Of a DNA stretch of 64,000 nucleotides, positions 11,148-38,280 are shown one piece after another (the stretch's first letter is position 1; every line of letters starts with the position of its first letter). This DNA comes from an uncultured Syntrophaceae bacterium. GTDB lineage: Bacteria > Desulfobacterota > Syntrophia > Syntrophales > UBA5619. Where the stretch lies: positions 610-64,609 of the forward strand of contig CAYSSF010000001.1 in the NCBI GenBank assembly GCA_964433455.1, given 5' to 3'. Position numbers and translations under genes: made by a program. The notes below the pieces were generated by a model. That model searched no databases and was not told the DNA's origin. It was given only the letters and a program-made list of their open reading frames with translations.

Positions 11148-11163
11148 TGGCATAAATATTGAA
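11148..11163 (+). promoter_or_regulatory. Sigma-54-like promoter, variant -12 (TGGCAT-N5-TTGAA)
   Basis: Correct GG-N10 spacing with GA at -12. Lies ~97 nt upstream of the cheR ATG. Confidence 0.3.
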
Positions 11164-11259
11164 GTGCACCGGTGAAGAATAAAGCTGTCCCTGTCGAGGG
11201 AAGGGATGCTGTCCAGGATGGCAGCCATAAACTGAACCGGATCGCCTTTGATTTTTGCC

Positions 11260-12093: not shown

Positions 12094-12099
12094 GGGCGT

Positions 12100-12582
12100 A
12101 TGAGCGATATTATCGTGGGAATTTCCGATCTGAAGGTGAGCAACCATCCGGGAGATGCGCTGATCACCTATGCCCTGGGCTCCTGTATCGGTATCGCCGT
12201 TTTCGATCCGAAGGTGAAGGTCGGGGGGCTGCTGCACTTCATGCTTCCGGACTCTTCGCTGGACGAGAACAAGGCGAGGACAACGCCGTGCATGTTTGCC
12301 GATACGGGCATTATCGCTCTCTTCAAGGCTTGCTACGCCCACGGGGCGGAAAAAAGGAGAATGGTGGTCAAGGTCGCCGGCGGTGCGAATATTCTGGACG
12401 ATACAAACTATTTTCGCATCGGTCAGAAGAACATCATGGCGATGAGAAAGATTTTTTGGCGCAACAATGTCTTGATCGACAGCGAAGAGACAGGGGAAAG
12501 TTTCAACCGAACCGTGAGACTCGAGCTATCGAGTGGACGGTGCATCCTGAAAAGCTCAAACGGCACGGTGAAAGACCTATGA
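12100..12582 (+). CDS. cheD: Chemoreceptor glutamine deamidase
   Basis: 160 aa with 'ALGSCIGIAVFDP' and 'GLLHFMLP', typical of CheD. Confidence 0.9.
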   Translation: MSDIIVGISDLKVSNHPGDALITYALGSCIGIAVFDPKVKVGGLLHFMLPDSSLDENKARTTPCMFADTGIIALFKACYAHGAEKRRMVVKVAGGANILDDTNYFRIGQKNIMAMRKIFWRNNVLIDSEETGESFNRTVRLELSSGRCILKSSNGTVKDL

Positions 12583-13427
12583 TCATCACCAGCATACTCA
12601 AATCCGTGGACATGATTCCCGCCTTTCCGGCAGCGATCCAGAAGGTCTCTGAACTGCTCAGAGATGAGGATTACGCTGTTGCCGATGTGGTCAATGTGAT
12701 CAAGCATGATCAGGCGATTGCAGCCAACATTCTCAAGATAAGCAATTCCGCCTACTTCAGCGCAAGGCAAAAAATCAAGACCATTCACGACGCGGTTGTC
12801 TATCTCGGCCAGAAACAACTGGTCCGTGCCGTGCAGACGGCCGGCATATCAAAAATATACCAAAAAGGCGGCAAGGGGTACGCTTCGCAAGCAAGCGATT
12901 TTTGGGAACATTCCGTGGCTGTCGCGCTGATGTCTCAAATTCTCTGCAGAAAGATTCAAGGGCGGGAAGATCCGATCCTCTATACGGCGGCGCTGCTGCA
13001 TGACGTCGGCAAGGTGATCATGGGAGAATACGTCCACGAATATTTTCAAAAGATCATCGATTGCGTCACGGAGACGAAATGTTCCTTTCTCGAGGCCGAA
13101 GAAGAGTTTATCGGGATCAACCACGCCAATCTTGGAGGCCGGATTGCCGAACACTGGAACTTCCCCTCTGAAATCAGGGACGCCATCGCATATCATCACC
13201 GGCCCGACCTGCTGGAGGAAGAGGGCAGCACCCACGCCTCTTTGGTTTACTTATCCGATCAGGCCTGCCTGATGATGGGATTGACGGGCGGTTTCGACGC
13301 CCTGGCGTATACGGGTCTTGAGGATGTCATGCGGCATTTCGACCTCAGAACGGCGGATCTGGAGCAGAGCTTGATCGAACTGCTGAACGAATTGGAAAGA
13401 GCACGGGATTTAATGAATATCGGATAA
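12579..13427 (+). CDS. HDOD domain protein
   Basis: ATG 12579 overlaps the cheD stop (ATGA). 'IPAFPAAIQKVSELL', 'DQAIAANILKISNSAYF' and 'AALLHDVGKV' match the HDOD pattern. Confidence 0.85.
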   Translation: MIITSILKSVDMIPAFPAAIQKVSELLRDEDYAVADVVNVIKHDQAIAANILKISNSAYFSARQKIKTIHDAVVYLGQKQLVRAVQTAGISKIYQKGGKGYASQASDFWEHSVAVALMSQILCRKIQGREDPILYTAALLHDVGKVIMGEYVHEYFQKIIDCVTETKCSFLEAEEEFIGINHANLGGRIAEHWNFPSEIRDAIAYHHRPDLLEEEGSTHASLVYLSDQACLMMGLTGGFDALAYTGLEDVMRHFDLRTADLEQSLIELLNELERARDLMNIG

Positions 13428-13445
13428 GTTCGTCATGAGGGGACT

Positions 13446-13877
13446 ATGTCATTCAATGTTATGATCGTCGACGATTCAGGCGCCATGCGGTCCGTCATCA
13501 AGAAGGTCATCACCATCTCGGGTTTCAAGATGAGCCTCTGCCTGGAGGCCGGCAATGGCCGGGAAGCGCTGGAGCGATTGCAGGGAAACTGGGTGGATGT
13601 CATCATCTCGGACATCAACATGCCGGAGATGGGAGGGTTGGAGCTGCTGCAGGCGTTGAGCCAGGACACGCTTTATCGAAATATTCCCGCGATCATTGTG
13701 TCCACGGAGGGAAGCAGCGAGCGGATGAAGGAGGCCCTGGATCGAGGGGCAAAGGGATTTATTAAAAAACCCTTTCTGCCGGAAGATATCCGGAGCGTCC
13801 TCTATGACGTGATAGGAGTGGGAACCGATGGCGAATATCAAGACGATTCAAGAAATGCTGACGAGGGCGATTTTTGA
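13446..13877 (+). CDS. CheY-like response regulator
   Basis: 'VMIVDDSGAMR', 'ISDINMPEMGG' and 'GFIKKPF'. 143 aa with an acidic tail. Confidence 0.88.
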   Translation: MSFNVMIVDDSGAMRSVIKKVITISGFKMSLCLEAGNGREALERLQGNWVDVIISDINMPEMGGLELLQALSQDTLYRNIPAIIVSTEGSSERMKEALDRGAKGFIKKPFLPEDIRSVLYDVIGVGTDGEYQDDSRNADEGDF

Positions 13878-19297: not shown

Positions 19298-19313
19298 TGG
19301 TATGTTAGTTGCA
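19298..19313 (+). promoter_or_regulatory. Sigma-54 promoter (TGGTAT-N5-TTGCA) upstream of fliH
   Basis: The GG-N10-GC spacing is exact. Lies 38 nt upstream of the fliH start. Confidence 0.55.
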
Positions 19314-22081: not shown

Positions 22082-22855
22082 ATGAATGAAACGGATCTTT
22101 ACTTATTTCTGGAGAAGAAATTTCTTGCCACTTTTCTGGACGAGCTCATGCCGGGGATTTTTCACAATTTTGCCAATCCGCTGAACGGCATTATGGGCCG
22201 CTCGAAATTGATGCAGCGGCGTCTGGAGGAGTTTGTCCGAAAAATCGAGAACCTTTACCCGGCAATCGAACAGGAGATCGGCGCGGATTACAAAAAATTG
22301 ATATCCGACATCGCGTCCATCAACAATGCATCCGACGAGTTTTTCGATATGTTCCGCATGGCGACGGGGAAATTTTATGCGCTCGGCTCCCGGGATGCCG
22401 AAAAGGTGAATCTCTCCGTTCTCATCGAAGCGGAACTGGGATTTGCGGATTTCTACCTGGACTATAAGCATAACGTCAAAAAAAAGATTCGTCTGGACAT
22501 GGACGTGCCGTGCATCTCCGGAATAACCGCCCATTATTCGATTGCCCTCTGGATGTTGATCCGTGAGGCAGCAAAAAATGCGCAAAAGCGGGATGGAGAG
22601 ACGCTGCGCATCGCCACGACCAGTGACGATCAATGGGTGATCGTGACCGTCAGCCATGTCGGCGGCAGTCTCATCCACGGGTGGAGGGAGATCTTGTTCC
22701 GTGCAAGCGCCGACGCGGATCCTCTGACCTGCGCCGCGGAGGGGGAGAAAGACCTGATCCAGGCGTTGATGCTGCTCCGACGGGCCGGCGACGTTGAGAT
22801 GACCCATGACGGGGATGCCGATCTCTTTACCATCCGGGTCCGACATCAACCATAG
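22082..22855 (+). CDS. Sensor-less histidine-kinase-like protein (degenerate ATP lid)
   Basis: H-box 'FHNFANPLNGIMG' and N-box-like 'LIREAAKNA'. The G1/G2 boxes are not recognisable ('SHVGGS'). No TM segment or sensor domain. Confidence 0.6.
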   Translation: MNETDLYLFLEKKFLATFLDELMPGIFHNFANPLNGIMGRSKLMQRRLEEFVRKIENLYPAIEQEIGADYKKLISDIASINNASDEFFDMFRMATGKFYALGSRDAEKVNLSVLIEAELGFADFYLDYKHNVKKKIRLDMDVPCISGITAHYSIALWMLIREAAKNAQKRDGETLRIATTSDDQWVIVTVSHVGGSLIHGWREILFRASADADPLTCAAEGEKDLIQALMLLRRAGDVEMTHDGDADLFTIRVRHQP

Positions 22856-23869: not shown

Positions 23870-25354
23870 ATGCTGCAATGTTTAAATATCGAGGAGATGG
23901 TTCTGCTGAAGAAGAGAATCCTGATTGTGGATGACTATCCACCGATACGACATTTGATCCGTGACGCCTTGAGCCAGGCCGGCGATTATGAGATCAGCGA
24001 GGCCGGAAACGGCGCAGAAGCCGTCGAACAATGCCGCTGGAGCACCTTCGATCTGGTGATCAGTGATGTCATGATGCCCGGGATGGGGGGGATGGAGCTT
24101 CTCAACCGGATCAGAGAGATGAGCCCCGACACGTCGGTGATCATGATTACCGCCCATCCTGCGGTCGATTTAACGGTTTCGGCCATGAAAAAGGGGGCCG
24201 TCGACTTTCTAAAAAAACCCTTCAATATCGACAGTCTGTTATACAAGGTCAAGACCTGCCTCGATGAAAAGAAGTTGTCGGAAGAGGCTGGACCGAAGCC
24301 CGGCAGCGCCGAGACAAAAATCACGGATAAAACGAAAGATTTATCCGTACAGGGATTTATCTATGACTCCTTCGAAAACATCGACGGGGATAATGAATAC
24401 ATCTTCCGGAAAATTGTCGATCTCTCGATGAACATCGTCGACGGGGAAGAGTGCGCCCTGCTGTTGTTCGACGAAGAAGCGGGCACCTTTGACCCGAAGA
24501 TCCTGAAAAGCCCGGACCGCGATACCTATGAAAGGGTAGCCCTCCCGGCCCTTCAGACGGTTTTCCGCCAAGTCGCGAACGAGAAACGGGCACTGGTGAT
24601 CCATTCGACCGAGCGTCCCGAGATCGCGCCGTCCCTGATCTGCGCGCCACTGATGATTCGCGACAATATTTTCGGCATTCTATGCATCCGCAGAAAGGAC
24701 CACCTCGAACCGTTTACCGCAAAAGACCTGCACTATGTGGTCAGCCTGACCAAGCGCGCTTCCCTCAATCTGGAAAACCAGGTATTGTATGAAAGCGTCT
24801 ATAATAATGTGCTGGATACGTTCAAATCCCTTCTCACCTCCATCCAGGTTCGCGATCATTATACCGAAGAACATTGTTCCCGGGTTGCCGTTCTGTCCGT
24901 AAGAATAGCCCAGGCTATGCATTGCACCACCAGGGAGATTGAATCGCTTAAAATCGCCGCAATGCTTCATGATGTGGGGAAAATTGCGATACCGGACAAG
25001 ATCCTTCTGAAACCGGACCGATTGACCTTCGAAGAGTTTACATTCATTAAAGCGCACACCGAGGTTGGTTACCGGATCCTGCAACCGATCTTTCTGCTGG
25101 ACCAGGAACGAAACATTCTGCTGCACCACCATGAGCGTTGGGACGGAAAAGGCTACCCCGAGGGGTTGGTGGGGGCGGATATCCCCTTCCTTTCCCGGAT
25201 ATTGTCCGTTGCGGATTCCTTTGACGCAATGACCAACAACCGGCCGTACCGGTCCGCCATGGATGTTTCCACCGCCGTTGAAGAGGTAAAAAGGAACAGC
25301 GGCGTTCAGTTTGACACGGGCGTCGTCGAGTGTTTCCTGCAACTGTCTCTCTGA
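23870..25354 (+). CDS. Response regulator-GAF-HD-GYP c-di-GMP phosphodiesterase
   Basis: REC ('ILIVDDYPPIR', 'ISDVMMPGMGG'), a central GAF-like region, and HD-GYP motifs 'HTEEHCSRV', 'AAMLHDVGKIAIP' and 'HHERWDGKGYPEGL'. Confidence 0.9.
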   Translation: MLQCLNIEEMVLLKKRILIVDDYPPIRHLIRDALSQAGDYEISEAGNGAEAVEQCRWSTFDLVISDVMMPGMGGMELLNRIREMSPDTSVIMITAHPAVDLTVSAMKKGAVDFLKKPFNIDSLLYKVKTCLDEKKLSEEAGPKPGSAETKITDKTKDLSVQGFIYDSFENIDGDNEYIFRKIVDLSMNIVDGEECALLLFDEEAGTFDPKILKSPDRDTYERVALPALQTVFRQVANEKRALVIHSTERPEIAPSLICAPLMIRDNIFGILCIRRKDHLEPFTAKDLHYVVSLTKRASLNLENQVLYESVYNNVLDTFKSLLTSIQVRDHYTEEHCSRVAVLSVRIAQAMHCTTREIESLKIAAMLHDVGKIAIPDKILLKPDRLTFEEFTFIKAHTEVGYRILQPIFLLDQERNILLHHHERWDGKGYPEGLVGADIPFLSRILSVADSFDAMTNNRPYRSAMDVSTAVEEVKRNSGVQFDTGVVECFLQLSL

Positions 25355-26198: not shown

Positions 26199-26280
26199 AA
26201 TCTCAAGCTTTGGCAGAGTGGCATGATTATCGCTTACTTCTCTGGCCGGATGGACTCATTTGGTTTTCAGGAGCATTGCC

Positions 26281-27006
26281 ATGGCGGGAGAGATCAAAAG
26301 AGAGGATGCAGGCTGGATCACCAAAAAAATTCTGGAATGCCGGCTCCATCTCAAGAAGGAAAATATCTATTCGTGTCTGGCGACATTCAAGGATGCTCTC
26401 GAAAAGATGCATACGACGAGAATGCTCCCGGTCGACGAAAAAAAACTGCACCAGGAGATCAATGCGTTTCAAGCCGATCTGGCTTCCTCCCATGCATTCA
26501 GGCATCTCTACGGGCCGGTTACGTTCAAGGACGACGATACAGAAACCGCTCTCGATTTCATGAAGCAACTTATCCAGATCAAGGAAGAAGAGATCGCAGA
26601 GGCGATGGAGACCCAGAAAAACGGGGCAGCATCGGGCGACAAGCCGGATGACTTCCAGCGGCGGGTTCAGGAGATCATGCTCTGTGTCGAGAAGGGGGAC
26701 TTTGACGTTGCCAGAAGCCTGGCGGAAAAGGATGAGGAGGCAGCCGATGTCCTGATCGAGGGTTACAATACATCCGGAATTCAATTCAGAATGGCCGGAG
26801 ATTTCGATAAGGCCGTCGTGACTTTCAAGAAGGCCCTTTTTGTCCGTCCCGGCGATGAGGGGCTCTATTACAACATGGCCAGGTGCCATATCGAGTCGGG
26901 TGACTGGAAGGCGGCCGACATCGTCATACAAGACGCTATCGATAAAAATCCCGACTTTCAAGAGGGTCTCCGGCTTCAGGCCTTCATCAGAAAGAATCTG
27001 ACCTGA
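26281..27006 (+). CDS. TPR repeat protein
   Basis: ATG 26281 is preceded by CAGGAG at 8 nt. The C-terminal TPRs read 'GDFDKAVVTFKKALFVRPGDEGLYYNMARCHIESGDWKAA'. Confidence 0.7.
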   Translation: MAGEIKREDAGWITKKILECRLHLKKENIYSCLATFKDALEKMHTTRMLPVDEKKLHQEINAFQADLASSHAFRHLYGPVTFKDDDTETALDFMKQLIQIKEEEIAEAMETQKNGAASGDKPDDFQRRVQEIMLCVEKGDFDVARSLAEKDEEAADVLIEGYNTSGIQFRMAGDFDKAVVTFKKALFVRPGDEGLYYNMARCHIESGDWKAADIVIQDAIDKNPDFQEGLRLQAFIRKNLT

Positions 27007-27013
27007 GGAAACG

Positions 27014-29377
27014 ATGTCGAAACAACTTACCACGGAAATGGCGGTGAATTCACACTTATGCCTTGGCTGTGGAATGTGCGTTGCAATTTGCCCAATGACA
27101 GCAATCGCCCTGATCGAGACGCCGGACGGCAGACTGACTCCCCAGATCAATCAAGATGTCTGTAATCATTGTGGTCATTGTCTGTCTCTTTGCCCTGGTG
27201 CATCGATTCACGGCATTGAGACGTTGATTGCCCGACAGGGATCTTTTGATGGCCCTTGCCTTGAAGCTTTTGTCGCACATGCCTCTGATCACGTGTTCAG
27301 GTCTCAAGGGCAAAGCGGTGGTGTCGTTACAGCAATTGCCGCAGGGCTTCTTGAATCGCAGCAAGTAGACGGCGTCGTCGTATCCAAGCTGGAGTGGAAT
27401 TCCAACAAACCAAGAGGCCGCACCTTTATTGCCAGAAGCAAGGATGAATTGCTGGCCTCTCAAGGATCCAAGTACTGTCCCATGCCCCTTTTTGAAAGGC
27501 TTAACGCCGAAATGGGGTCTTCGGAAAGATTGGCTGTTGTCGGTCTTCCCTGCCACATACACGCAATCCATAACTTAAAGACTCTGCATCCCGAAATTGC
27601 AAAACAAATTAAAATAACCGTCGGTCTTTTTTGTGACCGGACATTGACATACGCTGCCATTGACTATCTCATCGGTAGAGCAAATCTTCATGTTTCCGAT
27701 ATTTCGTCATTTATGTTTAGGGACAAATTGAGGACGGGTTATCCGGGCGATGTATGCATGTTGGAAAGAAATGGAAGGATAAAAGTTCTTCCAAACACGG
27801 AAAGGATGAGGATAAAGGATCAATTTACACCCCTTCGATGTCGATTCTGTTTCGATAAGCTGAACTTGCTTAGCGATATCACGATCGGCGATCCACATGG
27901 CATCAAGGAGGCAGATCGTTTAAAAGGTGAGTCCGTTGTGCTGGTTCGAACGCAAGTGGGTAAAGATATGATCAAACTCTGTCTTGATCACAGGATACTG
28001 GAGACAAAGGTTATTAATTACAGAGATGTCCATACGGGACAGGCAATGGATGACAAGTTAAAGGGATGGCATGCCTATGTGACCGCATGGCAAAGATTGG
28101 ACGGTCAACTTCCGACCTTTGCGGATCAACTGTCCAAGTTGATTGCCTCACCGCCTTCCGAAAATCCCCAATATACCTTGATGCTGATCCATACGCTACA
28201 ACAAGAGCTCTGCCTGAAGAGAGACGCGCTTTTACAATCCGCCTCCGTGAGATTAGGCGAATACGAACCTTATTTCGGAAGCATTTCCGATCGCCATTTT
28301 ATTGTTGAAATTATGGGTGCCGGCTTTGTAAACAAAGGCGCCATGTTGATGATGATGGCGGTTATGGAACAAATTAGGGAATATCGTCCAGACGCCAGGA
28401 TCGCCGTCGCCCCGATGCCGCAGATGAAACGTTTTCTCGACTATGAAATCTTGCCTATCATCCCCGGGCTGATCGAATATCCGGATCTAAATTTACTCCT
28501 TGACGCATCAGGGTTTGTCTACTCCGATCAGTGGGGAGCTGATTTTTCAAGAGCAGCGGCGTTTAAGTTTGAAAAGCTCAAGTCATATGGCGCCAAATTG
28601 ATTCTCTTACCCCAAGCATTCGGCCCCTTTCAAAATCCGGAGGTAAGGGATTTGTTCAGAAGAATCGTAGCCGCGGTCGATCTCATTTTTGTGCGCGACC
28701 ACAGTTCACTTGAACATGTCCGCTCCGTGGCTGGCGATGATCAGAAGATACATCTTGCTCCTGACTTCACGATCCTTCTTGAAGCCAAGAAACCGCTTGA
28801 GCCAAGCTTATATACAGACAAGGTGTGCATTGTGCCAAATTTACGGATGCTCGATAAAGCCGGAAACGGTGATAGCGCCCACTACATTGATTTCCTGAAA
28901 AAAACAGTCATCGCAAGCCGGACGCTGGGAAAGGGTGCATTTTTTCTTATCCACGAGGGTTATGGCGACTTTGAAATAGCACAAAGAGTAAACCACCTTC
29001 TTGATCAGAATTGCGAGATAACCATCGAAAGCGATCCGTTGGTATTGAAGGGAATTCTGGGCACATCTGCGGCGGTGGGGTCATCACGTTACCATGCGTT
29101 AATCGGCTCATTGTCCCAGGCGATCCCCTCCATTTGCGTCGGCTGGTCTCACAAATATCACGAGCTATTTAACGACTACAACTTTCCCGAGGGTATTATT
29201 GAAACGGATGCCACTCAGGACCAATTGCAGGGGGTGCTTGCAACCTTCTTCAATCATTCAACCAGGGATGGAATCATTGGGCGCCTCGCATCATCCGCTA
29301 ACATCCAGAAAGAAATAGCAAAGAGGATGTGGAAAATGGTTTTCGATTACGTAGGCCTGCCGCCAACGCACATTTGA
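27014..29377 (+). CDS. Fusion protein: 2x[4Fe-4S] ferredoxin + FrhB/FdhB-like (F420 hydrogenase beta-like) domain + polysaccharide pyruvyl transferase domain
   Basis: 'CLGCGMCVAICP' and 'CNHCGHCLSLCP' clusters, with 'GQSGGVVT' and 'VVGLPCHIHA' (FrhB-like). The C-terminal half, 'FVRDHSSLEHV...APDFT...SSRYHALIGSLSQAIPSICVGWSHKY', matches the pyruvyl transferase pattern. Confidence 0.8.
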   Translation: MSKQLTTEMAVNSHLCLGCGMCVAICPMTAIALIETPDGRLTPQINQDVCNHCGHCLSLCPGASIHGIETLIARQGSFDGPCLEAFVAHASDHVFRSQGQSGGVVTAIAAGLLESQQVDGVVVSKLEWNSNKPRGRTFIARSKDELLASQGSKYCPMPLFERLNAEMGSSERLAVVGLPCHIHAIHNLKTLHPEIAKQIKITVGLFCDRTLTYAAIDYLIGRANLHVSDISSFMFRDKLRTGYPGDVCMLERNGRIKVLPNTERMRIKDQFTPLRCRFCFDKLNLLSDITIGDPHGIKEADRLKGESVVLVRTQVGKDMIKLCLDHRILETKVINYRDVHTGQAMDDKLKGWHAYVTAWQRLDGQLPTFADQLSKLIASPPSENPQYTLMLIHTLQQELCLKRDALLQSASVRLGEYEPYFGSISDRHFIVEIMGAGFVNKGAMLMMMAVMEQIREYRPDARIAVAPMPQMKRFLDYEILPIIPGLIEYPDLNLLLDASGFVYSDQWGADFSRAAAFKFEKLKSYGAKLILLPQAFGPFQNPEVRDLFRRIVAAVDLIFVRDHSSLEHVRSVAGDDQKIHLAPDFTILLEAKKPLEPSLYTDKVCIVPNLRMLDKAGNGDSAHYIDFLKKTVIASRTLGKGAFFLIHEGYGDFEIAQRVNHLLDQNCEITIESDPLVLKGILGTSAAVGSSRYHALIGSLSQAIPSICVGWSHKYHELFNDYNFPEGIIETDATQDQLQGVLATFFNHSTRDGIIGRLASSANIQKEIAKRMWKMVFDYVGLPPTHI

Positions 29378-29441
29378 CCCAATTTTTTTGTCAATCGCTC
29401 GGCAGATTACTTTAATCCCATAAATCTAAGGGTAACAATAG

Positions 29442-31070
29442 ATGAAACCATTGAAAGCAAGGAAGAGAATAACGATATCCTTATGTATGATCGTAAGGAA
29501 TGAAGAGGCATGCCTCGACCGCTGCCTGAAAAGTGTGCGTGAATATGTTGACGAGATCATTATCGTGGATACAGGATCAACGGATAAGACGATCGAAATC
29601 GCAGCAGGGTACGGCGCCAGAATCTACCACCACCCCTGGGAAAATGATTTCAGCAAACACCGGAACCAGTCCCTGGCCTATGCAACAGGAGACTGGATAG
29701 TGCAGATGGACGCAGATGAGGAGCTGTTTGCGGAAGACGGGGCCATGTTGAGGTCTGCCATTCGGGAAGGGAAAGCCGATCATTTCCATTGCCGTTTTTA
29801 CGACATGAAAAAGGACGGCGCTGTCCACGGCGTCTTCTACCTGATCCGGCTGTTCCGCAATCGCATGGGGATGAGCTATGTGCGGAAAGTCCACAATCAG
29901 TTGCGCGCTTGCGGGGTGGGAGCCTACAGCGGGATTCGCATTCGGCACTACGGCTATGATCTGTCGGTGGAGCAGATGGAGGCGAAGCATGTCCGGACGA
30001 CAACGCTTTTGCAGGAAATGCTGACGAGCGACCCTGAGGATGTCTATAGTGTCTATCAATTGTCCGCCTCTTATTCCATGCACCGTGAGTTTGACAAGGC
30101 CGCCGAGTACGGAGAAAGGGCGCTGGCAATCATGCGCCGCAAAGGGTTGAGGAACGATTTTTTCCTGATTGTTTTCTATTCAGTCGCGCAGGGATACAAC
30201 GCCCTGGGTAGATTTGACGATGCGGAACGCGTCTGCATAGAAGCCCTTGATCTATTCCCCATGCATATGGATATGTGTCATCTCCTGGCCACCATTTATT
30301 TCCGCCAAAAAAATGCTGATTTATGCCAAGCCATCTCGGAGCGCTATCTTGCAATCTATGACGCCTTTGAAAAGAATCCATTGGTCTTGGGGAGTAGTTA
30401 TTGTCACAGTTTTGCCAAGAGAAATGAAATCTACTTCGGCCTGGCCTGCATCCACTTCATGAAAAAGGATTTTGCAGGGGCCGATGATTTATTTCGAAAG
30501 TCTTTTGAAGATTCAGGGAAAAAATTGGAAGAGGCAGAAAATGTCTGCCGTTTCTATTTCGGACAACAAATGGATGACAAGGCCTTGTCATGGCTGAAGA
30601 TTGCCTATCAAGCCGGTCTGGTCGCCGATAAAACCCCGGCGATTATGGAGGAACATCTGGAGCTTTATATGAAGGTGGGCAAAAATTGCCTGCAGCAGGA
30701 CGAACTGCAGGCCGCCGCCGATTGCCTGGAAAAAGCCGCAGATGAGGAACTCACTGTGGAGGAACAACTCGAAAAGCGGTTGTTACAGGTCGGGCTGTTC
30801 TGGCGGGTGGAAGCTACGGATGAACTGCTCGGATCCCTGGAATCGCTCATGGGGATGCTGGACATGCAGACCCGACGCACCCTCCAGTCTGTTCATGACC
30901 TGGGGCAGATTGTCTATGATATTGCCGAGGCATTTTGCCTGCGTCGCCAGTGGCCTTTGGCCGAAACAGCCCTTCAACTGGCTCTTCAGATCGCCCCGGC
31001 CCTTTTCGATCACCGCAAGTTCGAGCGGATGCTTCCGGGCGAAGCGCAGGCCGGCAATCACCCCGCGTAA
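29442..31070 (+). CDS. Family-2 glycosyltransferase with C-terminal TPR domain
   Basis: 'ISLCMIVRNEEACLDRCLKSV...IIIVDTGSTDKT...DADEEL' gives the GT-A/DxD pattern, followed by ~350 aa of TPR-like helices. Confidence 0.85.
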   Translation: MKPLKARKRITISLCMIVRNEEACLDRCLKSVREYVDEIIIVDTGSTDKTIEIAAGYGARIYHHPWENDFSKHRNQSLAYATGDWIVQMDADEELFAEDGAMLRSAIREGKADHFHCRFYDMKKDGAVHGVFYLIRLFRNRMGMSYVRKVHNQLRACGVGAYSGIRIRHYGYDLSVEQMEAKHVRTTTLLQEMLTSDPEDVYSVYQLSASYSMHREFDKAAEYGERALAIMRRKGLRNDFFLIVFYSVAQGYNALGRFDDAERVCIEALDLFPMHMDMCHLLATIYFRQKNADLCQAISERYLAIYDAFEKNPLVLGSSYCHSFAKRNEIYFGLACIHFMKKDFAGADDLFRKSFEDSGKKLEEAENVCRFYFGQQMDDKALSWLKIAYQAGLVADKTPAIMEEHLELYMKVGKNCLQQDELQAAADCLEKAADEELTVEEQLEKRLLQVGLFWRVEATDELLGSLESLMGMLDMQTRRTLQSVHDLGQIVYDIAEAFCLRRQWPLAETALQLALQIAPALFDHRKFERMLPGEAQAGNHPA

Positions 31071-31182: not shown

Positions 31183-31210
31183 TAAAGTTACGAGCCCCCC
31201 GCGTCGATAA
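31183..31210 (+). promoter_or_regulatory. Sigma-28 promoter TAAAGTTA-N12-GTCGATAA (fliC)
   Basis: Close match to the TAAAGTTT-N11/12-GCCGATAA consensus. Leaves a ~155-nt leader before fliC. Confidence 0.8.
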
Positions 31211-31327
31211 GAGTATCGAACAGAGCGGAACGAAGCGGAGGGAGGTGAGAAAAAGGGGTAGCGGCAAGGGCGCCGGAATAGGGAACGACCGATTCCGGTT
31301 CAACGGCAACTCTCTGAAAAATTACAT

Positions 31328-31365
31328 TGGCAAGGAAGCCAGAAAAAACCAAATCAAGGAGGATT
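31328..31365 (+). promoter_or_regulatory. Putative CsrA binding sites in fliC leader
   Basis: Hairpin TGGC-AAGGAA-GCCA presents GGA in its loop (31328..31341). A second GGA lies in the SD AAGGAGG (31356..31362). The two GGA motifs are ~24 nt apart. Confidence 0.5.
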
Positions 31366-31371
31366 AAGACC

Positions 31372-32490
31372 ATGGGATTCAGAATTCAAAACAACATCGC
31401 GGCAATGAATGCACAGAGCAACCTGGGTGTTTCCGATGCGCAGATGAGCAAATCGCTGCAGAGACTCTCTTCGGGTTTCCGGATCAACTCCGCCAAGGAT
31501 GATGCGGCAGGTCTCGCCATTTCGCAGGGCTTCAGGGCCGACATCGCATCCGTCAAGGTTGCCCAGAGAAACATCACGGAAGCGAACTCCCTCTTGCAGG
31601 TCGCTGAAGGCGCGATGAACAGCGTCGGCGACATACTGACCCGTATGAAGGAATTGGCCACGCAGGCCGCCTCCGCAAACGCGGGATCGGACATCGGAAA
31701 GGTCGGGGCCGAGTATGATACGCTGGTGGCTGAAATCGACCGTATCGCGAACTCCACCAAGTATGCGGGCACCGAGCTGACAAACGGCAATTTCACGGCA
31801 GGCAACACCCTGAAGGCAGCCAGTTCGACATGGGATTCGGCGGTCGCCAACGTTTATGATATCAACATCACGAACGCGGCAGCGGGCACCTACGTGGTCA
31901 CCGCCTCGGCGTTGGGGGACTCGATGACCATCACCAAGGGCGGCGTCTCCGAGACCAAGACCGTCAACGACGGCGCGCAGACGATCAACTTCTCGACCTT
32001 CGGCATCAGCCTCAAGACGACGGCCGCCGCGGTTGGCGATGCGGTCGGTACGGCCATGGCCGGCACACAGGTCATCTCTGCAGGTGAAAACTCCAAGAAT
32101 TTCCAGATCGGTTATGAGAAGAGTGCCGATTCGCAGCTCGGCGTGAGCATCGATTCCATCACCTCCACCGCGCTGCTGCTTGGCACGGGCGACCTGGCCG
32201 ATGCGGCAACCGCTTACGACACTCTCGACAAGATCGATGCCGCGGTCAGCGCTCTGGCCACATCCCGTGCAGAAGTCGGCGCCTACCAGAACCGGTTGAG
32301 CTATGCCAGCACCAACCTCGGCACCACATTGGAAAACTTCACCGCCGCCGAATCGGCGATCCGCGACGTGGATATGGCGGCTGAAATGACGTCCTTCACC
32401 AAGAACCAGATCCTCGTCCAGGCCGGTACGGCGATGTTGGCCCAGGCCAACTCGGCGCCGCAGCAGATCCTCTCTCTGCTCAAAGGATAA
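31372..32490 (+). CDS. fliC: Flagellin
   Basis: MGFRIQNNIAAMNAQSNL, 'LQRLSSGFRINSAKDDAAGLAIS' and C-terminal 'QAGTAMLAQANSAPQQILSLLKG'. ATG 31372 follows AAGGAGG. Confidence 0.96.
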   Translation: MGFRIQNNIAAMNAQSNLGVSDAQMSKSLQRLSSGFRINSAKDDAAGLAISQGFRADIASVKVAQRNITEANSLLQVAEGAMNSVGDILTRMKELATQAASANAGSDIGKVGAEYDTLVAEIDRIANSTKYAGTELTNGNFTAGNTLKAASSTWDSAVANVYDINITNAAAGTYVVTASALGDSMTITKGGVSETKTVNDGAQTINFSTFGISLKTTAAAVGDAVGTAMAGTQVISAGENSKNFQIGYEKSADSQLGVSIDSITSTALLLGTGDLADAATAYDTLDKIDAAVSALATSRAEVGAYQNRLSYASTNLGTTLENFTAAESAIRDVDMAAEMTSFTKNQILVQAGTAMLAQANSAPQQILSLLKG

Positions 32491-32513
32491 CCCCCTTTAT
32501 AACCCCTTTCAAA

Positions 32514-32543
32514 CCCCGCACCTTACGGTGCGGGGTTTTTTTT
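32514..32543 (+). terminator. Rho-independent terminator after fliC
   Basis: 9-bp stem CCCCGCACC / GGTGCGGGG, loop TTAC, followed by T8. Confidence 0.88.
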
Positions 32544-32696
32544 GGCCGATTCTTTGCTATATCAATGCACGGGATGTGACGGGATCGGGATGCCTCCACA
32601 GCATGTAATTCCGGACAGGACATAAAACAAAGTGATATCAGAATATTATATTTTCATGATCCGTGACGACGTAAAATGACGGTGATTCGATTATGC

Positions 32697-32748: not shown

Positions 32749-35700
32749 ATGGCCACAAACCTCATAAGCGGGCTTTCCAGCGGCATCGACTGGAAAACGA
32801 TGGTCGATCAGTTGATCGCCATAGACCACAGACGTGTCGATCTCGTTTCGAACAAGAAGACAACGGAGACGCAGAAGCTCTCGGAGTGGCAGTCGTTCAA
32901 TACCAAACTTCTCGCCTTGAAAACCGCCGCCGGCAACCTGAAGGACGCCGATGCGTTCAGTCTCTACACAGCCACGCTGACCACGGACAGTGCGACAGTC
33001 AAGGCGTCCGACCTGCTGACTGTCACGGCCTCAGCGAACGCTTCGATCGGCTCCTACGCATTGACGATCAACAGCCTGGCCCAGGCGCAGAAGATCTCCT
33101 CCGGATCATTCGCGAGTTTGTCCGACACCATCGGAGCCGGTCATGCAGGTGATTTCTTGATCAATGGAACGGTGATCCGTGTTGCGGCAACGGACACGCT
33201 GACCACGTTGAAGGACAAGATCAACGATGCCAATTCGGGCGCCAATCCGACAGGGGTCACAGCCGGCATTATCAGCTATGCGGCCGGTGATCACCGGCTG
33301 GTTCTGACCAGCGACAGCACGGGGGCCTCCGGCATCGGCCTTTTAAACGCGGGAGCGACCGACATCCTCAATCAGTTCGGCTTTACCGATACCAGCCGGG
33401 TCGCGAAAAACCACATCGCCGGAGGCGACAGAACGGACGCCTTCAGCAGCACCGCCGTCTCCATCCAATCATTGCTTGGGCTCTCAACCACCCAAACCTC
33501 CGGAGCAGGCGAGATCGTGATCAATGGTCAGGCCATTGCCGCCATTGATCTCAGTACGGATACGCTCGGCAGCCTGCAGACCAAACTTGCGGCTGCGGGA
33601 CTCACCGTCTCCATCACCAGTGAAACAGAGAGCAACCGGACCTCTTACCGGCTGATGGTCGCGGGGGCGGCCAATACCTATACGGACAGGAACAATATTC
33701 TTGAAACACTGGGATTGATCAAAGGCGGCGTTTCGGACGTGGCCGGCGTGGCCGGTGATGTTCCCAATACGACCGGCGGCGCCGTCATGACCGCGGACAC
33801 CCTGATCAAGGATATCGATGGCTACACAGGCTACCTGGATACGGACTACATCCATCTGGAAGGTACGGACACCAACGGGATCGCGGTATCGGACGATACG
33901 TTCGCGCTTTCCGAAACGACAACGGTCGGAGACCTGCTCGCGAAGATCCAGAGCCTGTTCGGCGATGTGACCGCATCGGTTATGGGCGACGGCAAGGTGA
34001 TGGTTGTGGACAACACCCCCGGTGCGACTCCCCTGGCGGTAACGATCGGCGTAAAGGATTCCGGGGGCGCGGCCGACGACACCCTCAAGTTGGACGCGGA
34101 CGGTCTCTTGGCCGGCATCACCCGGAAGCGGCAGATCGTGGCCGGATCGGATGCGTCCATCACGGTAGACGGCGTCACCGTCACCCGGTCGGACAATACG
34201 ATCGACGATATCATGGCCGGCGTCACGCTCAATTTGCTCAAGGCGGATGTCGGCACGACGGTGACGTTCAACATCGGCCGGGATATCGACGCGATTATGG
34301 CGAAGATGAACAGTTTTGTCTCCAGCTACAACGGCATTTCATCCTATATCCATACCCAGACCTCCTATGACGAAACGAAAAAAAAGGCGGGGGGACGGCT
34401 CTTCGGAGACGCGACGCTCGCCTCGGTTAAATCCGATCTGACCTCGCTCCTGGTCCAGCGGATCTGGGGCGTTTCTTCCGATTACGCCACCTTGGGTCTG
34501 GTGGGGATCAATGTGGACAAAGCAGGACAACTCTCCATCGACAACGGCAAGCTGCGCGGCTACCTGACCACGAACTTCAACGATGTTCAGAAGCTCTTCG
34601 CCGCCAGCGGGACAACCAGCGTGGGAACGCTTGAATATATCTCCCATGGGATCAAGGCCCAGCAGGGCGATTACACGGTTCATATCACGACAGCGGCCAC
34701 AAGAAGCACATCGGCGCCATCGGACAATACCAGCCTGAGCGGCGACGAAACGCTGACGATTGCCAGTGGGAGCAGTGCCGCAGTCATCGGCATGACCAGC
34801 GGAATGTCCATGGCCCAGATCGTAAATGCGGTCAACAGCGAACTGTCGACGAGCTACACGCAGATTCTGACCTCGGCCCAGCCGCTTTTCGCCGATGGCG
34901 GGCAGGCGGCGGCCATTACCGGATCAACGAAATGGAACAGCGTCTATGACGGCGCCGGCAGTTCGGCCAATCTGGCCGACGGCGACGTCATCTCCTTCAC
35001 GGGAACCTCCCGCAACGGCGCCATCCTCAACGGGTCCTACACGATTTCCGAAGTCGCCACGGACTCGGTCCAGGGGCTGCTTTCCGCGATCGAAACGACC
35101 TTCGGCAATGAAGTCACCGCAGCGGTCAACGCCTCCGGCCAGATTGTGCTGACCGACAAAACCCAGGGAAGCAGCAGTGTCGGGTTGACGCTGGTCACCA
35201 CGCAGGCCCATGACCTCGATTTCGGAACGGTCCTGACGACCAACACAGGCGCACAGCAGGGGCGCTACGCGATGGGGATCACCGCATCCGCCGATTCGGG
35301 CAACCACCTGATCCTGACCCACAACAGCTACGGCGCGGGGAACAGTTTCACGATCCGGCAGCAGAACAACCTCCTCTGGACCGGCGGCGACCAGACCGTC
35401 GACGATGGGGTGGACGTGGCCGGAACGATCAATGGGGAGGCGGCGACGGGTTCGGGGCAGGTGCTCAAGGGCAACAGCGGCGAGGCCAACGTGGATGACC
35501 TGTCGATCAAATATACCGGTTCTGCCGGCGGGGTTGACGCCGGAACGGTGAAACTCACGTTCGGCGTGGCGGAACTCTTTAACCGATCGCTGTTCAACAT
35601 CACCGATTCCCTGGAAGGCTACGTCTCTTACAAGCAGCAGTCTCTTCAGGGGAATATCAGCAGGTATGAGACCCAGATCGATGAAATGGAGGCCCGCCTG

Positions 35701-35835
35701 GACCTCAAGCGAGAGTTGCTGATCAACCGTTTTGTACAGATGGAGATGGCCATGCAGCAGGTCCAGAATCAGAGCAACTGGCTGGCGTCGCAAATCACCG
35801 TGGCGGCCAACGGTTGGGTAAAAAATACCAAATGA
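32749..35835 (+). CDS. fliD: Flagellar filament cap protein FliD (unusually long, 1028 aa)
   Basis: N-terminus 'ISGLSSGIDWKTMVDQLIAIDHRRVD' and C-terminus 'QIDEMEARLDLKRELLINRFVQMEMAMQQ', with a large central insertion. Confidence 0.9.
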   Translation: MATNLISGLSSGIDWKTMVDQLIAIDHRRVDLVSNKKTTETQKLSEWQSFNTKLLALKTAAGNLKDADAFSLYTATLTTDSATVKASDLLTVTASANASIGSYALTINSLAQAQKISSGSFASLSDTIGAGHAGDFLINGTVIRVAATDTLTTLKDKINDANSGANPTGVTAGIISYAAGDHRLVLTSDSTGASGIGLLNAGATDILNQFGFTDTSRVAKNHIAGGDRTDAFSSTAVSIQSLLGLSTTQTSGAGEIVINGQAIAAIDLSTDTLGSLQTKLAAAGLTVSITSETESNRTSYRLMVAGAANTYTDRNNILETLGLIKGGVSDVAGVAGDVPNTTGGAVMTADTLIKDIDGYTGYLDTDYIHLEGTDTNGIAVSDDTFALSETTTVGDLLAKIQSLFGDVTASVMGDGKVMVVDNTPGATPLAVTIGVKDSGGAADDTLKLDADGLLAGITRKRQIVAGSDASITVDGVTVTRSDNTIDDIMAGVTLNLLKADVGTTVTFNIGRDIDAIMAKMNSFVSSYNGISSYIHTQTSYDETKKKAGGRLFGDATLASVKSDLTSLLVQRIWGVSSDYATLGLVGINVDKAGQLSIDNGKLRGYLTTNFNDVQKLFAASGTTSVGTLEYISHGIKAQQGDYTVHITTAATRSTSAPSDNTSLSGDETLTIASGSSAAVIGMTSGMSMAQIVNAVNSELSTSYTQILTSAQPLFADGGQAAAITGSTKWNSVYDGAGSSANLADGDVISFTGTSRNGAILNGSYTISEVATDSVQGLLSAIETTFGNEVTAAVNASGQIVLTDKTQGSSSVGLTLVTTQAHDLDFGTVLTTNTGAQQGRYAMGITASADSGNHLILTHNSYGAGNSFTIRQQNNLLWTGGDQTVDDGVDVAGTINGEAATGSGQVLKGNSGEANVDDLSIKYTGSAGGVDAGTVKLTFGVAELFNRSLFNITDSLEGYVSYKQQSLQGNISRYETQIDEMEARLDLKRELLINRFVQMEMAMQQVQNQSNWLASQITVAANGWVKNTK

Positions 35836-35869
35836 CAAATGTAACCATTACCGAAAGCGAGGGACAATC

Positions 35870-36334
35870 ATGTATCAGAGTGTCGTCAATTCCTACCAGC
35901 AAACGCAATTCTTCACGACGAATCCGTCAAAACTGATTTTGATGTGTTATGAAGGGGCGATCAGCAGTTTGAAACTGGCGAGGGACAACTATCTGGCCGG
36001 AAGATTTGAAGCCAAAGCCGGGGCCCTGCAAAAATGTCTGGATATCCTTCATGAATTGAACGCCATCCTGGATCTTGAAAGGGGGGGGGAGTGCGCGGTA
36101 AACCTGCGGAGCCTGTATGTCTACATGACGCAGGCATTGACGGAAGCGGATCTGAAGAGGGACATCGAAACGATGAATCAGGTCATCACCCTGTTGGAAG
36201 AACTTGAATCCGCATGGAAGGTTGTTGCTGCGCACGCCGCCGGCGCCGAGGAGAGGCGGCCCGTGCCGGGAGTTGGACCGGGAATCCATAGGAGCGTCCA
36301 GCCGGCCGCAATCGCGCGGACATGGAGCGTATGA
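35870..36334 (+). CDS. fliS: Flagellin-specific chaperone FliS
   Basis: 'NPSKLILMCYEGAISSLKLA' and 'CLDILHELNAILDLERGGE...NLRSLYVYM'. Confidence 0.9.
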   Translation: MYQSVVNSYQQTQFFTTNPSKLILMCYEGAISSLKLARDNYLAGRFEAKAGALQKCLDILHELNAILDLERGGECAVNLRSLYVYMTQALTEADLKRDIETMNQVITLLEELESAWKVVAAHAAGAEERRPVPGVGPGIHRSVQPAAIARTWSV

Positions 36335-36370
36335 TGCGACCCGTTTTGTGCAGATCAGGGGGTGAAGACC

Positions 36371-36808
36371 ATGCAAAACCATTCGAATGAAATCGGGCAG
36401 ATCCTGGAGAAGAAGCGCGACGCCTATGCCGAATTTCTCTCTGCAACCCTGCTGCTGAAAAAGGCGCTGGACGCCGAAGAGATGGCCACGGTGAGCGGTC
36501 TAATCGAACGCCGTTCAACGTTGATGGGGGTCATTGACGGTTTGGATCGGGAGATGGTCCGTTATCAGAAAACCGGTCATTACGAACCAATCGGTGAAAC
36601 CGGCCCGAGAACGGCGGCCCTCTCCGCAAATCTGAGCGAAAAGCTCCGGAAGATCTTCTCCGAGAATCAGGATTGCCATGCCATTGCGGCTGACCGGCTT
36701 TCACGATTGCGCAAAGAACTGCTTACCCTTCATGAAAGAGCAGGCGGCGTCCACGGATACAACCATCCAGTCGGACAGGTCCCGAAGTTTCTGAACGTCC
36801 GGACATAA
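36371..36808 (+). CDS. Hypothetical helical protein (FliT/FlgN-like position)
   Basis: 145 aa, helical, located between fliS and flaG. No motif I can name. GTG 36362 is an alternative start. Confidence 0.5.
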   Translation: MQNHSNEIGQILEKKRDAYAEFLSATLLLKKALDAEEMATVSGLIERRSTLMGVIDGLDREMVRYQKTGHYEPIGETGPRTAALSANLSEKLRKIFSENQDCHAIAADRLSRLRKELLTLHERAGGVHGYNHPVGQVPKFLNVRT

Positions 36809-37456: not shown

Positions 37457-37972
37457 TCATACTACGGCAGCCGAAGAGGGGCTGAATCCGTCCGGTCGAT
37501 TCTGTCCCGTCCGGCCTTCCGCAGACAGGCCTCTTTTAAAATCGACCTTGTTGCCGAGAATGTCATGCTGAATCGGGTAATCGGGATCATCGAGAATAAC
37601 CTGTTTCGCCCATCTCTTTGAGGCATTGATCAGAATCGGGGCTCGAAGATTGACCGTTGCCCGGACCGGAGCGGAGCGAACCGTGACAATCGACAACAGT
37701 GCGATTTCTTCGGTCCTCTGAATATCCAAAGATCCCAGATCCTCTGCTGAGAAGGCCGGGACATAGTCCGGTTTGACGATCCGGGGATTGATGACCACAA
37801 AGGCAATGGCGCGATCATCGGCCGACTGCAGCCACAAGAAGGGCGGATTCTCATCGTTCGTCAGCAAGACAAATCGCTTAAGCTGCTCAAAGCCGAGGAT
37901 GCGTCCTCTCATCCCGATCAATTCCGACTCTTTTATCCGGATCTTGCCGAAGCGTGTCGTATCGATTTCCAC
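37457..37972 (-). CDS. fliW: Flagellar assembly factor FliW
   Basis: 'IDTTRFGKIRIKESELI', 'FLWLQS' and 'NLRAPILIN'. GTG 37972 lies 8 nt after AAGGAGG. The longer ORF-track start (38077) would overlap csrA. Confidence 0.88.
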   Translation of the reverse strand: MEIDTTRFGKIRIKESELIGMRGRILGFEQLKRFVLLTNDENPPFLWLQSADDRAIAFVVINPRIVKPDYVPAFSAEDLGSLDIQRTEEIALLSIVTVRSAPVRATVNLRAPILINASKRWAKQVILDDPDYPIQHDILGNKVDFKRGLSAEGRTGQNRPDGFSPSSAAVV

Positions 37973-38052
37973 GGCGGCTGCCTCCTTTTCTTGAATTCCG
38001 ATTATTTTTCGACGTCGAACGTCTGCGGCCATATCCGATTGGAGAAGACTGT

Positions 38053-38280
38053 TTAGCCCTGGGTCAACTGCTCCCACAGATCCGAAATCCCGATATCGGA
38101 TGCCGACGCCTGAACATTTTGCTCCTGAATCGCCTGATAGATCTCGGCGCGATGCACGGAAACATTTCGCGGCGCCTCTATCCCGATGCGCAACTGCTTT
38201 CCCGTCATCCCCAGAAAAGTGATCTTGATCTCATCGCCGATCACAATGGACTCTCCCAACTTCCGTGTCAGGATCAACAT
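38053..38280 (-). CDS. csrA: Carbon storage regulator / flagellin translation repressor CsrA
   Basis: [24 protein letters not shown]...[17 protein letters not shown]. Confidence 0.96.

Follow-up and report, generated by a model that had tools for sequence, protein, structure and literature searches.

A ferredoxin-FrhB-pyruvyl transferase fusion beside a GmaR-type glycosyltransferase in a predicted flagellin glycosylation island of an uncultured Syntrophaceae bacterium

The stretch of DNA analyzed here (64 kb of contig CAYSSF010000001.1 from an uncultured Syntrophaceae bacterium, hereafter the window) is a flagellar and chemotaxis cluster, as judged by Pfam scans of its open reading frames (ORFs). 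Directly upstream of the flagellin gene fliC lie three plus-strand genes, termed geneA, geneB, and geneC. The second encodes an unusual fusion of a ferredoxin-type domain, an FrhB-like iron-sulfur flavoprotein, and a polysaccharide pyruvyl transferase, and the third encodes a glycosyltransferase with tetratricopeptide repeats (TPR). The three genes, their domains, the fliC promoter, and the flagellin had been described in an earlier note made from the sequence alone, and Pfam and motif scans confirm all of them. The features of the locus are as follows.

26219-26234 (+): candidate sigma-54 -24/-12 promoter TGGCATGATTATCGCT, 47 nt 5′ of geneA; two mismatches to TGGCAC-N5-TTGCW; tentative
26281-27006 (+): geneA, 241 aa; TPR confined to residues ~160-235 (Pfam TPR_19, E 5e-11)
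27014-29377 (+): geneB, 787-aa fusion of a 2x[4Fe-4S] ferredoxin, an FrhB-like Fe-S flavoprotein, and a polysaccharide pyruvyl transferase
27035-27199 (+): geneB residues 8-62, ferredoxin-type domain (Pfam Fer4_7, Fer4); two [4Fe-4S] clusters predicted
27263-28048 (+): geneB residues 84-345, FrhB/FdhB-like domain, predicted holder of flavin and a [4Fe-4S] cluster
28301-29353 (+): geneB residues 430-780, PS_pyruv_trans domain (PF04230), predicted phosphoenolpyruvate (PEP)-dependent (enol)pyruvyl transferase of GT-B-like fold
29442-31070 (+): geneC, 542 aa, GT2 (GT-A) and TPR; predicted flagellin O-glycosyltransferase
31183-31210 (+): sigma-28-type fliC promoter TAAAGTT-N13-GTCGATAA, the only match in 64 kb, with 0.05 expected
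31372-32490 (+): fliC, 372-aa flagellin (Pfam Flagellin_N, Flagellin_C), the presumed acceptor
32749-36334 (+): fliD (1028 aa) and fliS by Pfam, conserved downstream partners of geneC-fliC

Architecture of the geneB and geneC proteins

The earlier note had read geneB as a fusion of two 4Fe-4S motifs, an FrhB/FdhB-like domain, and a pyruvyl transferase, a reading borne out by Pfam, by motif scans, and by Foldseek searches with an AlphaFold2 model. The ferredoxin-type domain contains two complete CxxCxxCxxxCP motifs (C16/19/22/26 and C50/53/56/60) and is followed by FrhB_FdhB_N (residues 86-163, 70.7 bits), FrhB_FdhB_C (residues 171-334, 96.7 bits), and PS_pyruv_trans (PF04230, residues 440-713, 101 bits versus a cut-off of 25.3). 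The NCBIfam models for FrhB, FpoF, and CsaB all match below their equivalog cut-offs: frhB scores 77.7 against a cut-off of 331.5, the F420 equivalog models are all far below theirs, and the CsaB model TIGR03609 matches at E 5e-17, far under its own. Sequence matches in the Protein Data Bank (PDB) are 8rja_E and 8riu_B (E 1e-22). In the AlphaFold2 model (pLDDT 87, pTM 0.59), the N-terminal half adopts an FrhB fold (TMt 0.74-0.78 to FrhB-type chains), with matches to FrhB, Fsr, and the 7-hydroxymethyl chlorophyll a reductase HCAR, and the C-terminal half matches GT-B enzymes. Similar to the geneB N-terminal half, HCAR (5dqr) combines the FrhB fold with Fe-S and flavin cofactors, and it reduces an organic substrate with electrons from ferredoxin; it differs in its substrate and has no transferase fusion.

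The residues expected of a working redox module are conserved. The ferredoxin cysteines are kept in fused geneB homologues, with C50, C53, C56, and C60 nearly invariant, and the FrhB-like domain has S101, G102, G103, S152, Y154, C180, C207, P244, G245, C276, C279, and D281 invariant across 16 fused homologues. By homology, C180, C207, C276, and C279 would be cluster ligands and the SGG stretch a flavin motif. With these four cysteines, the SGG stretch, and the two ferredoxin motifs in place, the redox module looks intact and active. Invariant residues of the PS_pyruv_trans domain include N440-K441-G442, D497, the PQAFGPF stretch (P533-F539), R561, D584, S691, R692, H694, and W711-Y715.

The geneC protein is composed of an N-terminal glycosyltransferase domain (Glycos_transf_2, PF00535, residues 13-126, 84.5 bits) and a repeat region in which TPR_12, TPR_2, and TPR_1 match at residues 205-304. 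Its AlphaFold2 model (pLDDT 88.9, pTM 0.81) shows a GT-A domain at residues 12-170 and all-helical repeats at residues 176-528. Across 14 orthologues, the motif D90-A-D92-E93 (DxD) and 80 further alignment columns do not vary. The family comprises 4368 matches, and full-length orthologues at 45-87% identity are conserved up to the C terminus. Public gene calls start geneC at Met16 (527 aa), omitting the 29442-29489 region and with it the first β-strand of the GT-A fold; because the alignment to GmaR and to the orthologues starts at residue 9, the longer 542-aa start is the better one.

The best PDB match to geneC, over residues 9-195, is the glycosyltransferase domain of GmaR from Listeria monocytogenes (22ao, E 2e-33), followed by SunS/ThuS (E 1e-18). 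GmaR is both a flagellin β-O-GlcNAc transferase and an antirepressor of MogR (PMC9638930). The resemblance to GmaR suggested in the earlier note is thus real homology as far as the catalytic domain is concerned, but it does not extend to the antirepressor region. The two proteins share an N-terminal GT2/GT-A domain (~50% identical over the first ~100 residues), TPRs that follow it, and a flagellar linkage. GmaR is longer (637 versus 542 residues), has no partner enzyme that further modifies the sugar, and acts in a MogR context that geneC lacks, no MogR-type gene being seen among the ORFs scanned in the window. Residues 200-542 of geneC (343 residues) match none of the TPR, linker, or antirepressor chains of GmaR at E ≤ 10; what geneC has in common with GmaR is therefore the catalytic module and the architecture, not the regulatory module. 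As a full GmaR orthologue, geneC is ruled out by the unmatched antirepressor region.

The best whole-chain structural match to geneC is SunS/ThuS (PDB 7msn, 7msk; Foldseek E 2e-15), in which a GT-A domain is likewise joined to peptide-gripping helical repeats; the TPR region of O-GlcNAc transferase (OGT) comes next in the Foldseek search. SunS and ThuS differ in that they glycosylate cysteine in bacteriocin precursors and have no flagellar link. The model TIGR04195 matches geneC at E 2e-24, under its cut-off. GmaR, SunS/ThuS, and OGT are all polypeptide-glycosylating enzymes.

Genomic context of geneA, geneB, and geneC

Orthologues of geneC at 87, 73, 64, and 61% identity lie immediately 5′ of fliC-fliD-fliS in all four relatives examined, and the order geneC-fliC-fliD-fliS is common to the loci L004, L167, L168, and L169. 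What lies 5′ of geneC varies. In the window and in L004 it is geneB; in L167, a gene for a 1084-aa TPR/glycosyltransferase/methyltransferase protein; in L168, two radical-SAM genes with genes for an Asn-synthase-like protein, a carbamoyltransferase, and a TPR protein; and in L169, a ten-gene set that includes a sulfotransferase, a methyltransferase, an aminotransferase (DegT), an isomerase, an epimerase, and a radical-SAM gene. A fixed transferase beside flagellin together with a hypervariable tailoring cassette argues for a flagellin glycosylation island. The flagellin itself fits the Ser/Thr-rich central domain described in the earlier note, with 24% Ser+Thr in residues 141-290 versus 8-11% in neighboring enzymes. 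In L169, a metagenome-assembled genome of Syntrophus sp., the flagellin-adjacent transferase (10001-12850, 949 aa) consists of two geneC-like units in tandem, at 60% and 73% identity, and is preceded by a large cassette of deoxy-amino-sugar, methyltransferase, and sulfotransferase genes.

Metagenomes were scanned with a geneC alignment. The matches listed, to which the following counts refer, are mostly relatives at 24-44% identity with a few short fragments at 58-74%, and they form a sample of the wider family. Filament genes (fliC, fliD, fliS, flgK, flgL, fliW) occur in 28 of the 80 GT2-TPR loci, and 18 of the 26 such loci that have 3 kb or more of sequence on each side sit beside them. In none of these 80 loci is geneB found. 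The link to flagellin, which the earlier note drew from position only, is no longer a matter of position in a single genome: geneC is fixed 5′ of fliC in all relatives examined, and geneB is syntenic in two (L004 and L001). Given the homology and this conserved linkage, it is quite likely that geneC O-glycosylates flagellin.

The placement of geneA is of a different kind. In its protein Pfam recognizes nothing but TPR, and its PDB matches are only generic TPR proteins. Homologues fall into 169 clusters, of which the 120 listed have identities of 59% or more and a uniform length of ~241 aa. In every locus examined, geneA adjoins, and is divergent from, an SLT gene in a fliH-fliI-fliL-DUF2802 block. 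In some genomes it has neither geneB nor geneC next to it, and the neighbor is then a gene for a 401-aa TPR protein, a flagellin with FlbT/FlaF, or a 1414-aa methyltransferase/GT2 protein. Because geneA also occurs where neither geneB nor geneC adjoins, it appears to be a conserved flagellar-cluster TPR gene rather than a specific member of the glycosylation module, and the functional trio envisaged in the earlier note does not hold. A role as a glycosylation specificity factor, such as GlfM for Maf-2, is ruled out by the geneA loci that have no adjacent geneC. The start of geneB lies 7 nt past the geneA stop codon on the same strand, and the two genes are probably co-transcribed.

For geneB, a search covering 185,579 species genomes yielded 79 species-level loci from the best 80 matches. 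The fused architecture is rare, occurring in about 25 clusters, and close relatives (57-85% identity) are few. The contigs of two of them, L004 (82%) and L001 (57%), were read, and both show synteny with the window. In L001, which shares its contig with L007, an insertion sequence (IS) element with an rve-family transposase (12947-13507) separates geneB from a fragment of geneC that ends the contig. This 546-kb contig is labeled as 'uncultured Chloroflexia bacterium', although its flagellar genes show synteny with those of the window, whose nearest named relatives are Syntrophales; the bin label may be wrong. In L142, the order is SLT-geneA-geneC with ~950 bp between geneA and geneC, which leaves no room for geneB. 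In addition, the GC content of geneB (0.476) is the lowest in the window, compared with 0.542 for the window and 0.595 for fliC. The synteny in L004 and L001, the absence from L142, and the low GC content indicate that geneB is a putative cassette insertion.

More distant geneB homologues, at 25-41% identity, are found in lipopolysaccharide (LPS), O-antigen, or exopolysaccharide (EPS) loci and not beside flagellin. A distant fused homologue (L005/L006) lies in an O-antigen-type locus with an ABC transporter (Wzm/Wzt), and the Syntrophus buswellii homologue sits among GT2, GT4, GT9, and methyltransferase genes. In L002, a ferredoxin-less homologue (39%) adjoins a GT2 gene near pilus/secretion genes (MshE/T2SSF-type). 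Just upstream of the L002 homologue are two paralogous-looking ORFs of ~245 aa (5481-6218 and 6464-7207) that have no Pfam match and may be the glycosylation targets there. Only one of the 79 loci, L007 with the 57% relative, has flagellar neighbors. Placement of homologues in EPS or capsule loci, a pattern that the earlier note set against a flagellin role, is thus seen for the 25-41% homologues of geneB. The presence of the distant homologues in polysaccharide loci points to a recruited polysaccharide enzyme, not a dedicated flagellar family, and geneB is best described from its sequence relationships as a polysaccharide-tailoring enzyme that entered the flagellin island in a single lineage.

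Reductase coupling and a proposed lactyl-ether chemistry

The two halves of geneB are fused in 11 of the 79 loci and are encoded by adjacent genes, in either order, in 28. In one protein, P0067 (784 aa), the order is reversed, with the pyruvyl transferase N-terminal and the Fer4-FrhB module C-terminal, an independent fusion of the same two activities. At the 76 loci with the transferases closest to that of geneB, a flavin reductase is fused or within 3 kb in 70 (92%). These reductases are of two types, FrhB-like in 41 loci, a count inflated by the inclusion of the FrhB half of geneB in the query that gave the best 80 matches, and of the Nitroreductase family in 29. The nitroreductase gene is present in 29 of the 35 'PT only' loci, the subset without query bias toward FrhB. 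Directly upstream of the transferase, seven of the nine 'PT only' loci examined have a 350-380-aa protein of the Nitroreductase family, and one further locus has a divergent FrhB-like protein. The coupling of two unrelated reductase families to one transferase clade argues that the reaction includes a two-electron reduction, and a transferase coupled to a reductase points to a lactyl ether rather than a ketal as the product.

The nitroreductase neighbor has a C-terminal PF00881 domain preceded by ~180 residues that have no Pfam match. It lies ~1-2.4 kb 5′ of the match at 10001 in L044, L047, L052, L059, L071, L075, L081, and others, and in L047 the nitroreductase-transferase pair is beside a Wzx-type flippase. 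Hosts of the pair include Pseudomonas/Phytopseudomonas, Mesorhizobium, Leptolyngbya, Algoriphagus, and Salinisphaera. A DNA-level search of E. coli genomes with a gammaproteobacterial nitroreductase and transferase pair gave no match.

Capsule loci of Klebsiella offer a comparison in which polysaccharide composition is reported. A survey of 78 capsule loci, 79 K types, and 1515 genes recorded nitroreductase genes twice and an F420-hydrogenase-like gene once (PMC4616057). According to its supplement, the nitroreductase genes are in K22 and K37 with the pyruvyl transferase gene wclZ, and the 'coenzyme F420 hydrogenase' gene is in K66 with the pyruvyl transferase gene wcqF (PMC4616057). The survey authors list K8, K22, K37, and K66 as types that have pyruvyl transferase genes despite non-pyruvylated capsules (PMC4616057). 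The reductase-linked types K22, K37, and K66 are therefore three of the four K types with a transferase gene and no pyruvate ketal. A lactyl ether, 4-O-[(S)-1-carboxyethyl]-D-glucuronic acid, is present in the K22 capsule according to the title of the structural paper, which speaks of 'another glycan' and so implies an earlier one, presumably K37. Similar to geneB, the Klebsiella types K22, K37, and K66 pair a PF04230-type transferase with a flavin reductase and have no ketal pyruvate; they differ in that the two activities are encoded by separate genes and in that the substrate is a Wzy-type capsule repeat unit rather than a protein-linked sugar. Lactyl-ether sugars also occur in O antigens of Shigella, E. 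coli (O58, O124, O164, O69, and O150), and Proteus, and K37 is probably the first glycan in which 1-carboxyethyl-glucuronic acid was found.

On the simplest reading, a PF04230 enzyme that is coupled to a reductase would transfer enolpyruvate from PEP, and the resulting group would then be reduced to a lactyl ether. For geneB, the reductase coupling and the Klebsiella correlation make a 1-carboxyethyl (lactyl) ether, not a ketal, the product that we favor by a modest degree. The pyruvylation contemplated in the earlier note is probably the wrong chemistry, since the reductase coupling points away from a ketal. The proposed chemistry is reminiscent of MurA and MurB, the first of which transfers an enolpyruvyl group from PEP that the second, with its flavin, reduces to a lactyl ether. 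The likeness lies in reaction logic only: MurA and MurB have EPSP-synthase-like and PCMH-type FAD folds versus the GT-B and FrhB folds of geneB, which probably draws its electrons from ferredoxin instead of NADPH and probably acts on a glycan instead of a nucleotide sugar.

Taken together, domain content, homology, synteny, and the reductase coupling of the transferase clade suggest that the locus is probably a flagellin O-glycosylation island in which geneC adds a sugar and geneB reductively adds a lactyl group. In the proposed mechanism, the TPR superhelix of geneC would hold unfolded flagellin before export, and its GT-A domain would O-glycosylate the Ser/Thr-rich central domain in the cytoplasm. 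No nucleotide-sugar or pseudaminic/legionaminic acid (Pse/Leg) genes, and no Maf/FlmG-type transferase domain, were found among the ORFs scanned across the 64 kb; the lack of sugar-biosynthesis genes suggests that the donor would be a housekeeping nucleotide sugar, by analogy UDP-GlcNAc. The C-terminal domain of geneB would then move a three-carbon unit from PEP to a hydroxyl of the flagellin-linked sugar, and its N-terminal module would deliver two electrons by way of the 2x[4Fe-4S] ferredoxin domain, the FrhB [4Fe-4S] cluster, and the flavin. Reduction of the enolpyruvyl ether to a 1-carboxyethyl (lactyl) ether would give an acidic, muramic-acid-like lactyl-HexNAc, so that two genes would suffice for an acidic flagellin monosaccharide, in place of a long nonulosonic-acid pathway. 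That geneB acts on a flagellin glycan is moderately likely from the operon structure, the three syntenic contigs, and the logic of the island.

Several observations weigh against this proposal, in addition to the inflated FrhB count. We know of no characterized PS_pyruv_trans enzyme that has been shown to release an enol ether. Below ~57% identity, geneB homologues are all outside flagellar loci, and the link between geneB and flagellin consists of three related contigs and the logic of the island. The inter-domain geometry of the geneB model is uncertain (pTM 0.59) and was set aside, which leaves communication between the two active sites hypothetical. The Klebsiella enzymes are compared by annotation only, with their membership in the geneB clade assumed and the K66 structure unconfirmed. 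Finally, sigma-54-like matches across the window are not above chance (28 versus 26.7 expected), and the site 5′ of geneA is a weak one.

The alternative that survives best places geneB in the same island as the maker of an ordinary cyclic pyruvate ketal, with the Fe-S/flavin module serving redox gating, scaffolding, or another substrate. The biochemically characterized PF04230 enzymes CsaB, WbbZ, and Pvg1p are all ketal-forming, WcaK, GumL, and ExoV also count as ketal formers, and PEP-binding-type motifs are conserved in geneB. A further precedent is the enterobacterial flag-2 region, where a PF04230 gene for a WcaK-type pyruvyl transferase has been noted among the flagellin glycosylation genes; the evidence there is purely genomic, and the region differs in having no reported reductase domain, another type of glycosyltransferase, and an enterobacterial host. 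A ketal is nevertheless unlikely in view of the flavin reductases, from two unrelated families, that are fused or adjacent to 92% of the closest pyruvyl transferases, and of the reductase-linked Klebsiella transferases, which occur in types that have no ketal pyruvate.

It is quite unlikely that geneB, and possibly geneC, modifies an envelope polysaccharide or another protein and came to lie by fliC through the chance landing of a cassette. The 25-41% geneB homologues, all in O-antigen (Wzm/Wzt), LPS-core-like, or GT-rich loci, would fit such an origin, as would the solitary flagellar neighborhood of L007 among the 79 loci, the low GC content of geneB, and the IS element beside it in L001; moreover, 52 of the 80 GT2-TPR relatives among the metagenome matches listed have no nearby flagellar gene, mostly on short contigs. 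Against a chance landing, geneB is separated from geneA by 7 nt and from geneC by 64 nt on the same strand with no intergenic terminator-like hairpin, the arrangement persists in the relatives at 82% and 57% identity, further relatives carry different glycan-tailoring genes in this slot, and the flagellar linkage of geneC is broad and strong. A third alternative, that geneC is mainly a GmaR-like antirepressor of flagellar transcription and not an enzyme, draws on the dual function of GmaR (PMC9638930) and on the conserved, long helical C-terminal region of geneC, but it is very improbable given the 343 C-terminal residues that match no GmaR TPR, linker, or antirepressor chain, the invariant DxD motif and GT-A core, and the lack of a MogR-type gene among the ORFs seen in the window.

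Flagellin glycosylation affects filament assembly, motility, and recognition by phages and immune systems, and the known examples mostly use long nonulosonic-acid pathways. On the proposal of a flagellin island with lactyl-ether chemistry, a single GmaR-type transferase and one fused tailoring enzyme could yield an acidic glycan. GT2-TPR flagellin transferases such as GmaR, flagellin glycosylation islands, and a PF04230 gene in flag-2 regions are already known; what is new is an Fe-S/flavin-pyruvyl transferase fusion inside a flagellin island and a transferase clade that is almost always reductase-coupled. Literature searches in one paper library found no paper on lactyl/carboxyethyl ether enzymology, on FrhB or nitroreductase proteins with a pyruvyl transferase, or on flagellin with a pyruvyl transferase. 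The reductase-coupled clade is a concrete candidate for lactyl-ether sugar synthesis, and we tentatively propose that its members may be the missing makers of non-murein lactyl ethers in bacterial polysaccharides, one of them recruited here to flagellin. The same tentative proposal would have the GmaR-type transferase and the fusion coat the filament with a muramic-acid-like acidic sugar, powered by ferredoxin in an anaerobe, as an inexpensive functional substitute for Pse/Leg decoration. If so, many 'pyruvyl transferase' and 'F420 hydrogenase beta' genes in glycan loci are misnamed, and serotype predictions of pyruvate ketal from such genes need revision.

Promoters and other features of the cluster

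The sigma-54-like element upstream of geneA is kept in place in L004 (TGGCACGATATTCGCT) and in L001 (AGGCATGATTTACGCA), and the cluster also has a gene for a sigma-54-dependent response regulator, at 9518-10969 (-). A sigma-70 promoter scan of the region gave nothing above chance (two found versus 5.8 expected). Terminator-like hairpins around geneA, geneB, and geneC lie only inside genes, and shuffled sequence has as many of them; a strong terminator is found 3′ of fliC at 32511-32538. The geneA-geneB-geneC operon is probably driven by the sigma-54-type promoter and fliC by sigma-28, with FliA encoded at 48373-49077 (-). Elsewhere in the window, a perfect sigma-54 consensus (TGGCACATGAATTGCA) is located just upstream of flgF at 46406-46421 (-), and weaker matches lie upstream of fliD (32543-32558 (+)) and fliH (19298-19313 (+)). 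The pattern suggests a flagellar hierarchy of sigma-54 and then sigma-28.

The fliC leader (31211-31371 (+), ~160 nt) contains two GGA motifs, AAGGAAG at ~31331 and AAGGAGGA at ~31355, the latter overlapping the Shine-Dalgarno sequence. FliW and CsrA are encoded nearby, at 37457-38077 (-) and 38053-38280 (-), and the arrangement resembles the translational checkpoint that FliW, CsrA, and flagellin form in Bacillus. FliD (32749-35835 (+)) is unusually long at 1028 aa, with FliD_C matching in two stretches; relatives conserve this length, with 1026 aa in L004, 1032 aa in L169, and 913 aa in L167. With a Ser+Thr content of 22%, FliD could be a second glycosylation target.

Upstream of the three genes, the cluster encodes cheR, cheB, cheA, cheX, fliH, fliI, fliL, a DUF2802 gene, an RR-GAF-HD gene, and the SLT lytic transglycosylase. 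Downstream of geneC are fliC, fliD, fliS, an unnamed 148-aa ORF, flaG, fliW, csrA, flgL, flgK, and flgN, followed by flgI, flgH, flgA, flgG, flgF, fliA, flhG, flhF, flhA, flhB, fliR, fliM, flgE, and flgD. Three ORFs of the cluster have no meaningful family match: 36362-36808 (+), the 148-aa ORF after fliS; 46805-47959 (-), 384 aa, between flgF and fliA; and 22082-22855 (+), 257 aa, after fliL, for which NCBIfam gave a match at chance level only. ORFs of similar size and position to the 148-aa and 257-aa ORFs are found in relatives.

The RR-GAF-HD gene (HD-GYP-type, 23870-25354 (+)), a PilZ gene (7121-7645 (-)), and an HDOD gene (12288-13427 (+)) lie within the flagellar cluster and suggest that motility is controlled by cyclic-di-GMP. 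L001, L004, and L171 have the RR-GAF-HD gene in the syntenic position; in L170 it is relocated. At the edge of the window, 57-692 (+) encodes a protein of the GPP34 (Golgi phosphoprotein 3) family (PF05719, E 7e-48), which is unusual for such a bacterium.

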